Assembly: GCF_033153115.1 (NCBI RefSeq)
Contig: NW_026889800.1
Span: 6,510,001 to 6,574,000, forward strand
DNA from: Saccostrea echinata
Lineage: Eukaryota
Direction of reading: 5' to 3'
Length of the DNA stretch: 64,000 nucleotides
A model generated the notes under the pieces. It saw only the letters and a list, made by a program, of their open reading frames with translations, was not told the origin of the DNA and ran no database searches. Below are positions 12,934 to 16,590 of the stretch, piece after piece. Position 1 is the stretch's first letter, and each line of letters starts with the position of its first letter. A program made the position numbers and the translations under genes.

Positions 12934-15900
12934 ATGAAGACAGTGGTATATTTCTTTGCTTTATCTATATCGGTGGCGTTTTGTGAAATCAGTAAGCGTG
13001 ATTTACTAGAAATCCTCGGGATTATTCATAAAGACCCAGGTTTTCCTACGCTTCCGATGGATACTCAGCTTACCATTGTTGAGTTGGTTGCAGCAGCTGA
13101 AAATGGGGTCCTTGTGCCCTATGTAGATGGAAAAGGATTTCTAAACGTTTTGAAGGCTTTGAATGGTGAGTTTTATTTTGTTGTTGACAGTCGTTTGGAT
13201 GTCTGAGGTATACAAGGACTATCTAATATTAGTTCTAATGATAGGTAATAATATAATCTTATTGTACTTTACATTTACTCTCTTCTTTTGATATATGATA
13301 TTTTGTTGATTTTATTGATTTATTGATTTTATTAATTTATTGATTTTATTGATTTATTGAACACATGTAACAGTTGGAACATCCATTCAACAGAAAAGCC
13401 TCGAAACGTATCTTTTAATGGTAAGATTGGTTAATTTAGACAACAAAAACTCACAAGAAGGCTAAAATTGTATATTCAAATTATATAAAGGACAAGATAG
13501 GTTAAGATCCATTTTGGCTCCTGCTTTTGGGTGTCTTTTAGAATGATGCAACAGTTTATCAATAAAAGCCTGTTGTCACCCCTGCCACAAAATGATCATT
13601 GGTTCTAAGTTACGGGATACACAGAAGTCAAGGAAGGTCAGGATATATGTCAATTTCCGAATTTTCTCATTTTTATGGAAATTTTCATCGATTTTACGGC
13701 ACATTTCGTTTCAGAAAACATAGAGCACAAGCTTGCCTATCTACCAAATTTATACATTTCATACACTAGTATCAGAGGCATCTTTTATATAAAAATCTCA
13801 GATAGGCAAGCTTGTGCTCTATGTTTCCTGAAGTGAAAAGTATCTTAAATTTCACAAAATTCCAACAGAATTAAGGAAATTCGGGAAAATGTCCTACTTC
13901 TGCACTTTTTTGTGGCCTCCGTATAAGCTTTGAATCAAAATTAGTGCTGGTTTTAAACAAGCATCATTTTAAGTTCTTAACTGCAAACTATTAAAATTTT
14001 AACTGTGTTCTGATTTTTGCATCAAATAAGGGGCCATATTCGGCCGTTACCATACCTTGTCCTTTAATTTATTCGCATCAATTAAGATAATTCAGTCTTT
14101 GGTTAAACCGCTGGCCATTATGCTACAGTATAAATAAAATGTTTCACTTTACAAAGCATATGAATATGGAGTACAGTAAAACAACCACACCATCTACGAC
14201 TACAACAACAACGACAACCACAACAACTACAACAACACCTAAACCACAAGTTGTTGGAGTAGGCAGTGTAAGTATTTATAGGTATCTATATTCCTTAAGA
14301 ACAGGTTGTAGGAGTAGGTAAAGAGGGTATTTACGGTAATTTTATCCAACGTTTGCAAGAATATACAGTGTATTTACAGAGTTATTTCAAAACTCCTAAA
14401 CAACAAGTTGTAGAAGTAGGCAGTCTAAGTATTTACTGTAATTTTACAACATCTTTTTCAAAGTTTGTAGAAGAGGTTAATAAATGTATTTACAGCAATT
14501 GTACAACTCCATAAAAACTTATTATAGGAAAAGGCAGTGTGAGTATTTACAATTCCTAAGCCACGGGCTGTAGGCATACAGTGTAAATATTTACAACTCA
14601 TTTTTCAAAATATGTAGGAGAAGGCATTAAACATATTTACAGCAATTGTGCAATTGTGAAAGAATTAGGCAGTGTAAGTATTTACACTAATTTTACAGCT
14701 CATCATTCAAAGTTTGTAGTAAAACGCAGTGCAAGTACTAACAGTTATTTTAGAACTCCTTATCTTAAGTTTGTCGGAATAGGATGTGTACGTATTTACA
14801 CTAATTTGCAACCCCTTATCCAATTCTATACAATAAGGTAGTGTGATTGACAACTACATCCCAAAATTTCGTGGTAGTTGTCAGTATAAGTATTTACAGT
14901 ATAATTTTACAACCCCTTATCCAAAGTTTTTAGGAAAAGGGCAATTTAAGTCACAAGACAATACGAGAAGTCACTGAAGTAACAGTTAATGTATGCAACT
15001 TCCAACACACTCTCTGGAACAGTGTTAAAAGTTAGCTGTTAGTGTCTGTGACTAAAGTAACAATGTCAAAGTCACAATTAAGCTGTTGAATTAAAAATTT
15101 AATATGTTACTTTTAAAATGTTTAAACAACTGCGAAGCAAGGGGATGTGAAACACAAGCTATTATAGTAGTAAGCATGAATATTAATATAAAAAGCACAT
15201 TTTGAACACATTTGAGTCGGCAATTCACCCCATATATGGCAGAATTGAAAAAAAGACAGTTAAAATACTTAATTATAAGTTAATTTGAATGATAATTGTA
15301 AGTATGTTTGATTCTATATAGTTACCCCATATTATAGTACATGTGCTACTTCCTATATATCCTTGGAGTTTTCAGTATTATAATTCTGTCAAAATGGTGG
15401 GAAAATCATAATTTTCAGTTCAAATTTATTAAAATGCTCAGGAAAACATATTCCATGAGAGGTTCATAAAACAGATAATCTTTGTTAGGGGATAATTATT
15501 ACTGGTATATGATCTTCTTCAGGGCCCGCTTGGTAAAAGGGACACTGATAACTACCTTCAACATTCCATACTGAACAGCCCAGCATTCCAGCACCTACCA
15601 GAGGACAAGAAACAGATTATCCACCGAGTGTTGGATTCCGTCAGTAATCATCATCTAACACAAACCATATTCCTACAACAAGGCATAGACTTCATCCATA
15701 CACTAAGTAAGAATAAGATCTAAGGAAAAAATATCAGAAGGTCTGATAAACGATATGTACCTTTGCTTTTTTTAATGAAATACTGTAAAATATAAAGTAA
15801 AGGTAAAATATAATTTTATTGAATGTTTACCTCATCATCCTTTGGATATCAGTCAATGGTATTTTTATCATATTCCCCACTCTGTGTTCCAACGCCTTTT

Positions 15901-16590
15901 GATAATATGTAAACAAATAATTACTTTTACGTTTTAAAAATGCAAGTTCAGTTAAAATCATATTTAATGTAACAATAATAATCAGTGAAATAAATTTAAT
16001 TACTTTAAGGAGATATATTTGCTTTATTTCAATACATATTGTCTATTTCTTAGCGTTGTATGATTTTAAATTGTTATTCGGCATACTGTAACCCAAAGTG
16101 GAAAAGGAAAAAAAAAATGTTTATTAAAGGAACTTCATTTTTCCACAGGGCTACCAGCTGATCTTGCTCATAAACTCACTTTACTCATTATGCATGTAAG
16201 TAACATTTGTATTGACAGGGAAAAATATAAAGGTTTCAGTCAGCAATTATTAAAACTTCTTTCAAATATGACTAAAATTGAATTGAATGAAAATGCTTTT
16301 TTCTTTCATGCAAAACTTTAAGAAACAAAATTGGAGGATAGGAAAAGTGCCCGATCACTAGGAATACGCTATGATTGGTTCAAACACATTCCTTGTTTTC
16401 TTTTATCATCCTCTGTGAAGATTTCAAAATTTGTTTGTGTGTGTATGTTGAAGGTTATTATTATAGGGTCAATCCCCATAAATCCATCAAAAAGATAGTG
16501 ATCTCATGAACCCGATTTGATTTGTATTGCAGGAACTTATGCTTGAGGGACATGGCACAAAATTTGAACACAAGGGCGACGACGATAAGT
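12934..16590 (+). CDS. Uncharacterised secreted protein with two homologous helical domains and a Thr-rich linker (exons 12934-13165, 13374-13420, 14157-14267, ~15523-15706, 16149-16195, 16533-~16590)
   Basis: Signal peptide MKTVVYFFALSISVAFC; junction phases 1,0,0,1,0 join into one open frame ending ELMLEGHGTKFEHKGDDDK-stop; exons 2 and 5 are both 47 nt; KR sites precede both domains. Confidence 0.8.
13489..14063. mobile_element. Kolobok-like non-autonomous element in intron 2
   Basis: AGGACAAG...CTTGTCCT termini flanked by ATAA/TTAA; internal inverted repeat 13716-13742 / 13800-13826. Confidence 0.7.
14230..14950 (+). repeat. Degenerate ~57-bp tandem repeat derived from the exon 3 end plus its splice donor
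   Basis: Units resemble CAAGTTGTAGGAGTAGGCAGT|GTAAGTATTTACAG. Confidence 0.8.

Follow-up and report, generated by a model that had tools for sequence, protein, structure and literature searches.

The window, a stretch of 64,000 nucleotides from the oyster Saccostrea echinata (contig NW_026889800.1, positions 6,510,001 to 6,574,000), contains a two-domain gene of six exons on its forward strand and a one-domain paralogue on the opposite strand. Exon 1 of the two-domain gene (12934..13165, +; placed by AG/GT ends and spliced contigs) encodes a signal peptide, a short propeptide ending in Lys-Arg (12985-12999, +) and helices 1-4 of domain 1, and is followed by a phase-1 intron. Exon 2 (13374..13420, +; 47 nt), in which the last helix of domain 1 begins, is followed by a phase-0 intron, and exon 3 (14157..14267, +) completes the domain before running into a Thr-rich spacer at 14178-14252. 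Exon 4 (15523..15706, +) carries Gly-Lys-Arg at 15532-15540, a predicted cleavage and amidation site, and then helices 1-4 of domain 2, again ahead of a phase-1 intron; the last helix begins in exon 5 (16149..16195, +; 47 nt), and the coding part of exon 6 (16533..16592, +) supplies the end of domain 2, a short His/Asp tail and the stop codon (16590-16592). Polyadenylation-like hexamers lie 3′ of exon 6 at 16608 and 16614. All five introns are GT-AG, with phases 1,0,0,1,0, and each half is split by a phase-1 and then a phase-0 intron, in agreement with the duplicated three-exon module proposed in the first-pass annotation. The "identical" 47-nt middle exon of that annotation has to be corrected, as exons 2 and 5 are equal in length only, with 14 of 47 bases the same.

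The oyster two-domain gene is real and is spliced into one mRNA. A 704-nt contig from public run X1 spans all five introns and shows 0 mismatches to the listed exon pieces, so that the six-exon splice model first put forward was right. The same contig contains the junction of exon 3 to exon 4, which had been set beforehand as the point on which that model could fail; runs X2 and X3, from one sample of a second study, back this join together with joins 2-3, 4-5 and 5-6. Run X4, from another organism, contains an orthologue whose exon 4 shows 15 differences over 137 nt and is spliced to a shorter exon 3. None of the runs is registered as RNA; their RNA origin was deduced from the intron-free spliced contigs. 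Intron 3 opens with seven degenerate repeats of the end of exon 3 and its donor (14262..14896, +; period ~57 nt; 7 matches against a chance mean of 0.29), and use was seen only for the first donor.

The one-domain paralogue (6997-5021, -), which the first-pass annotation does not mention, lies head to head with the two-domain gene, ~5.9 kb away. Its exon 1 (6944..6997, -) encodes a signal peptide; exon 2 (5689..5860, -) encodes a single Arg and helices 1-4 and precedes a phase-1 intron; exon 3 (5552..5598, -) is 47 nt long; and exon 4 (5201..5271, -) holds the end of the domain, a His/Gly tail and the stop, with a non-coding exon following at ~5021-5105. The product is 113 aa and all introns are joined in X1. 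This spliced gene with one module shows that a single module can constitute a complete product. High-copy dispersed repeats, to which many diverged contigs map, occur in or beside these two genes (13487-14069, 17259-17500 and 5903-6349).

Two further paralogues, each with two modules, stand in tandem on another contig (loci L009-L011, G000:C20:2473759-2496737). One corresponds letter for letter over six exons to an annotated S. echinata protein, and the second is ~88% identical to the first in the large exons. Searches put the genome total at no fewer than four genes and seven modules, and a six-frame profile scan of the window, 20 kb upstream and 50 kb of C20 returned no module beyond the known seven. 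The middle exon is 47 nt in 3 of 5 mapped modules, and 56 and 50 nt in the C20 paralogue. In every mapped module, a phase-1 intron follows helix 4 and a phase-0 intron falls within the last helix. Phase 0 also marks the introns that separate one module from the next or, in the one-module gene, the signal exon from the module. Given these phase-0 borders and the constant internal pattern, the module appears to behave as a symmetric three-exon cassette, and the genes offer a clean example of polyprotein growth through such a cassette.

Domain homology and family range

The precursor encoded by the two-domain gene comprises 226 aa, in the order signal peptide, domain 1, Thr spacer, Gly-Lys-Arg and domain 2. 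The signal peptide, judged by hydropathy and family alignment, covers residues ~1-17 (hydrophobic residues 3-17, 11-residue window up to 2.3), and the highest 19-residue hydropathy after it is 1.46, which indicates no transmembrane segment. The hydrophobic N-terminus and the lack of a later membrane span support the predicted secretion, and the Magallana gigas orthologue belongs to a dataset that PMC6425005 describes as SignalP-filtered. Several features noted at first sight were confirmed: Lys-Arg stands ahead of both domains, with Gly directly before the second; the sole Cys sits in the signal peptide, leaving the mature part Cys-free; product 2 is His-rich (10 His in 90 aa); and the tract after domain 1 is Thr-rich (Ser/Thr at 19 of 26 spacer residues). 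The tract had also been called a mucin-like stalk, but it is a Thr spacer of ~20 residues whose only counterpart is in Pinctada, one scallop having a shorter run of Ser/Thr; judging by the sequences, it is a lineage-specific spacer. A mucin identity was rejected, as the spacer accounts for ~26 of 226 residues and is absent from most family members, and the mucin family PF01456 scored 9.8 bits against a cut-off of 34.7.

The two halves had been said to align with each other. Compared directly, domains 1 and 2 share 16% identity with a pairwise score of 40, which was equalled by 23 of 5,000 shuffles and is weak, but their homology was recovered through an independent profile. This profile, built from 44 domains without the window proteins and their two closest orthologues, gave 44.6 bits for domain 1 and 25.4 bits for domain 2, against 8.7 bits for the best domain-2 shuffle (980 of 1,000 shuffles reported). 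AlphaFold2, run on the Pinctada orthologue with an alignment of 23 rows, modelled both domains at pLDDT ~90 and with the same helix order, joined by a disordered Thr linker (pTM 0.44); the model of the Mya protein repeated this pattern less confidently. The profile scores and the AlphaFold pattern together support the two homologous helical domains originally proposed, here of ~75 aa, and the module is predicted to be an all-helical unit of five helices.

A search with exon 1 found one full-length relative, M. gigas K1RX09 (gene CGI_10020071), 78% identical. Scanning 1.84 billion representatives with K1RX09 yielded 11 matches, of which six were named proteins, all uncharacterized, from Pinctada, Ylistrum, Mya, Saccostrea, Mizuhopecten and the snail Batillaria; a Dreissena member was found in a later search. 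The Batillaria protein as query gave 12 matches with 3-4 modules each, mostly on contigs of about 1 kb, and the first domains of seven ~1 kb contigs cluster with Batillaria with support of 100/100. The number of modules per precursor ranges from 1 to 4 across the family. Every named match is annotated "uncharacterized" or "hypothetical", and none of the named matches from these searches, which were of limited sensitivity, comes from outside the molluscs. By these sequence matches, the family spans bivalves (clams, oysters and scallops) and a caenogastropod snail.

In a tree on 78 columns, whose deeper forks lack resolution, each of the two window domains falls with its counterpart from M. gigas and Pinctada (support 96/86 and 99/94), which implies that the two-module gene is older than the split between oysters and pearl oysters. 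The M. gigas database model P0001 has no equivalent of exon 3 and carries a long extra C-terminus; it is probably mis-predicted, or else the spacer exon was lost or is skipped.

Predicted fold and known families

Foldseek searches of PDB with two models, and of viral structures with one, returned no match at E ≤ 0.001, and a wide structural alignment of two whole-protein models gave best Z scores of 6.7 and 7.4, with none at 8. The best matches include the influenza M1 N-terminal helical domain (5cqe; Z 7.4, rmsd 3.2, 71 aligned), the ULK3 MIT domain (2mqw; Z 6.1, rmsd 3.0, 69 aligned) and the N-domain of a proteasome lid subunit (4wzx; Z 5.9, rmsd 2.9, 76 aligned). At 5-9% identity and Z below 8, these were regarded as helical-bundle background, and no homology is claimed. 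Two solved chains that are unrelated to each other each match domain 1 in one model and domain 2 in the other through nearly identical residue ranges (3-75 and 4-73 of 2mqw; 319-416 and 320-416 of 7bu0), which is an indirect sign that both domains share one fold. A PDB sequence-profile search reached best E values of 0.42 and 0.11, and the ESM Atlas held no usable match for two members.

In Pfam, neither the exons of the window nor the first 12 relatives scored above a curated threshold. The Baculovirus PEP N-terminal domain (PF04512) scored 32.5 against 23.9 bits in one four-module protein by summing repeats, and was rejected, as no single stretch reached E ≤ 0.1, 6 of 23 members matched at E ≤ 1, and no viral fold matched at E ≤ 0.001. 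In paper main texts, no member accession or short motif was found (subscription papers and bioRxiv supplements may name the family); CGI_10020071 occurred in none of the best 20 of 265 papers, concept searches gave nothing specific, "Alb-23" had 0 literature matches, and the available portions of PMC8158898, PMC5549309 and PMC6337334 held nothing relevant. The view that the module belongs to no described family was thus upheld as far as these searches reach: on sequence comparison, both domains are one family of ~75 aa that carries no name in Pfam, among solved folds or in the papers searched.

Across 49 domains, one Leu and one Gly are near-invariant (48 each), and no polar residue exceeds 35 of 49, turn and cap positions aside. 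Conservation thus falls on the hydrophobic core, the helix caps and one Gly, and the lack of an invariant polar residue speaks against both an enzyme and a fixed metal site. The earlier suggestion of a metal-binding protein lost its footing in the same comparison, as no His, Asp or Glu column is nearly invariant and there is accordingly no conserved metal site. A two-chain prediction for Mya domains 1 and 2 scored 0.48 against 0.04 for the best of 3 controls, with one of three runs at 0.01, contact agreement of at least 8% and partner pLDDT of at least 61; at or below 0.60 lie 5 out of 78 solved complexes and likewise all 4 of the 180 mismatches that passed, so that with this tool such a pass is more often wrong than right unless the pairing is likely beforehand. 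The prediction lends weak support to a possible pairing of the Mya modules.

Processing signals

Dibasic KR or RR sites occur in 29 of 31 inter-domain linkers of 20 proteins and 3 times within 3,624 domain residues, a density of 0.041 against 0.0008 per residue, or about 50-fold. Shuffling the linkers 2,000 times placed KR or RR in a mean of 4.3 of 31 linkers, with a maximum of 11; since the linkers belong to related sequences, the counts do not represent independent events. The counts omit the fragments P0002, P0003, P0005, P0007 and P0011, near-identical cluster members, loci L025-L031 and model P0033. Of the two cases lacking KR/RR, one has an R-x-x-R site and the other is a junction in a gene model with no linker at all; the dropped model P0033, whose first 87 aa equal those of P0032, has no dibasic site, and its inclusion gives 29 of 33. 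The convertase-type sites first noticed in a single protein are thereby backed by conservation throughout the family. Ahead of domain 1, KR or R is present in the oyster/pearl-oyster group and absent elsewhere.

Arg at P4, as at furin-type sites, occurs in only 3 of 30 sites, and this rarity fits granule convertases. The predicted new N-terminus is invariably Asp, Glu, Gln, Asn or Ser, with Gln, a candidate for pyroglutamate formation, at 8 of 30 sites. A Gly stands directly before the dibasic pair in 6 of the 8 linkers from bivalves and in 2 of the 23 gastropod-type ones, the residue before that Gly is Val, Ile or Leu in 7 of 8 cases, and three bivalve proteins terminate in V-G-K, I-G-K or V-G. 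From these motifs we infer cleavage and amidation in the two-domain precursor, and processing into separate folded modules is considered quite probable. A two-domain protein that is secreted intact, its spacer O-glycosylated and its basic pairs incidental, would fit a gene model such as P0033 that lacks the sites, and cleavage itself is read from sequence; with KR/RR so concentrated in linkers, and kept from bivalves to gastropods though the linkers vary in length and sequence, this is very improbable.

The mature regions are free of Cys in 20 of 20 proteins and acidic in 20 of 20 (net -3 to -30). Acidity, the lack of Cys, PC-type dibasic sites, amidation signals and the weak predicted pairing of modules would also suit a granin-like matrix of secretory granules, whose acidic precursor would condense in the presence of Ca or Zn, be cut by resident convertases and serve mainly to package other cargo. 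Granins, however, are mostly unfolded or coiled-coil, whereas the modules are compact with a conserved core, and domain 1 retains long conserved stretches in gastropod-type members, as a partner-binding surface would. A granule matrix is therefore regarded as rather unlikely.

Products and their possible role

Our best explanation, to which we assign a probability of roughly 45%, is a precursor cut into two folded, Cys-free modules that act as extracellular signals of a hormone- or pheromone-like kind. The signal peptide would be removed first, a convertase of the PC1/PC2 type would cut after Lys-Arg in secretory granules, carboxypeptidase E would then trim the basic residues, and the peptidylglycine amidating enzyme would convert Leu-Gly to Leu-amide. 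This would yield a product 1 of ~111 aa (11.8 kDa), whose Thr tail may carry O-glycans, and a product 2 of 90 aa (10.4 kDa). The two would be released together in a 1:1 ratio and might stay paired. Of these steps, the signalling role is the one held least firmly and is a best guess; a product length of 75-110 aa, which is large for a neuropeptide, counts against it.

The architecture is of a known kind; the module is undescribed. A signal peptide, dibasic sites and Gly amidation signals, which define mollusc neuropeptide precursors in the available portion of PMC6425005, are common to this precursor and to molluscan neuropeptide and peptide-hormone precursors, but the products here are folded Cys-free domains of 75-110 aa. 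Mollusc neuropeptide surveys seek short or Cys-rich products, and the module family has passed at least one survey unnamed: in the portion of PMC6425005 available, the M. gigas and Dreissena orthologues stand in the bulk candidate file only, and the curated family maps contain no member by exact motifs. Exact motifs of several members were also absent from the oyster and scallop ganglion neuropeptide supplements PMC8398477, PMC5996578 and PMC4200219, as far as these were available, so that a neuronal source is not supported, such surveys being aimed mainly at short peptides.

The Sepia officinalis sex-pheromone precursors SPalpha and SPbeta, described in the accessible part of PMC3484142 as exocrine precursors cut at dibasic sites into products of 1-8 kDa, some of them amidated, are the nearest working analogy, one without sequence likeness. 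Their products are Cys-rich and unlike each other, whereas here the units are Cys-free repeats of one fold, and the peptides printed in that part show no resemblance by eye to the window modules. The water-borne pheromones of Aplysia, namely attractin, enticin, temptin and seductin, are likewise small secreted mollusc signal proteins. According to the same portion of PMC3484142, each derives from a precursor with one product; attractin has three disulfides, and seductin, described there at second hand as one product of 28.9 kDa, is a poor fit to the module family.

More tentatively, the family may represent an overlooked class of protein hormones or water-borne pheromones common to bivalves and snails, consisting of disulfide-free five-helix ligands whose fold has no clear solved relative, built from 1-4 exon-cassette modules with neuropeptide-like cutting and amidation, and acting as two-chain ligands with a conserved first module and variable later ones. 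If the products are signals, this ligand class would be older than the bivalve-gastropod split and would occur in farmed or invasive species such as oysters, scallops and the zebra mussel.

Nematode polyprotein allergens of the ABA-1 type are also tandem all-helical units cut from a secreted precursor at basic sites, although their units are ~125-130 aa and have Cys and furin-type sites, and no Cys occurs in the 20 mature regions here. This likeness raises the possibility, which we consider doubtful, of a polyprotein of small mucus or body-fluid carriers, whose modules bind lipid or another small ligand while His/Asp tails bind metal. Folded helical units in tandem with basic cleavage sites would fit, as would the uniformly acidic mature regions with 3.7-8.9% His, gathered in the module tails of gastropod-type members, and complete transcripts assemble from mixed public data sets, suggesting abundance. 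Against carriers, however, stand the scarcity of furin-type sites, the variable His positions within the domain, and the lack of any nematode-allergen Pfam match in 23 members (first 25 of 43 families). The allergen fold is not listed among the top 50 structural matches, although the two may still share it. Amidation and pyroglutamate signals are also unusual in bulk carriers. Even if the modules are carriers, the domain is an undescribed one with exact, testable product masses and termini.

A precursor of shell or adhesive matrix, processed like Pif and laid down in the shell, would likewise be secreted, acidic and His-rich, and the named matches are molluscan only. The M. gigas orthologue CGI_10020071, however, occurs 0 times in the larval shell-protein supplement PMC6231486, in which ids with the prefix CGI_1002 occur 154 times, and 0 times in the PMC3686672 supplements searched, which list 2,174 shell-damage genes and not the full set of 259 shell proteins. 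The shell assignment offered at first is thus unsupported as it was stated, and we hold it improbable. Signals rank first, followed by carriers, granule matrix, shell matrix and, last, the uncleaved protein.

Elsewhere in the window, a CARD domain (PF00619, E 2.7e-08) and, after it, a coiled-coil frame of 350 aa at 26041-28541 (+) probably form one immune or apoptosis adaptor gene, and degenerate tandem arrays at ~880-1530 and 1790-2160 yield spurious open frames. Exons of a gene resembling triose-phosphate/nucleotide-sugar transporters lie at 31906-37283 (+; PF03151, E 0.0036, below cut-off). As M. gigas CGI_10020072, numbered next to the orthologue of the two-domain gene, carries DUF250, this hints at conserved gene order.
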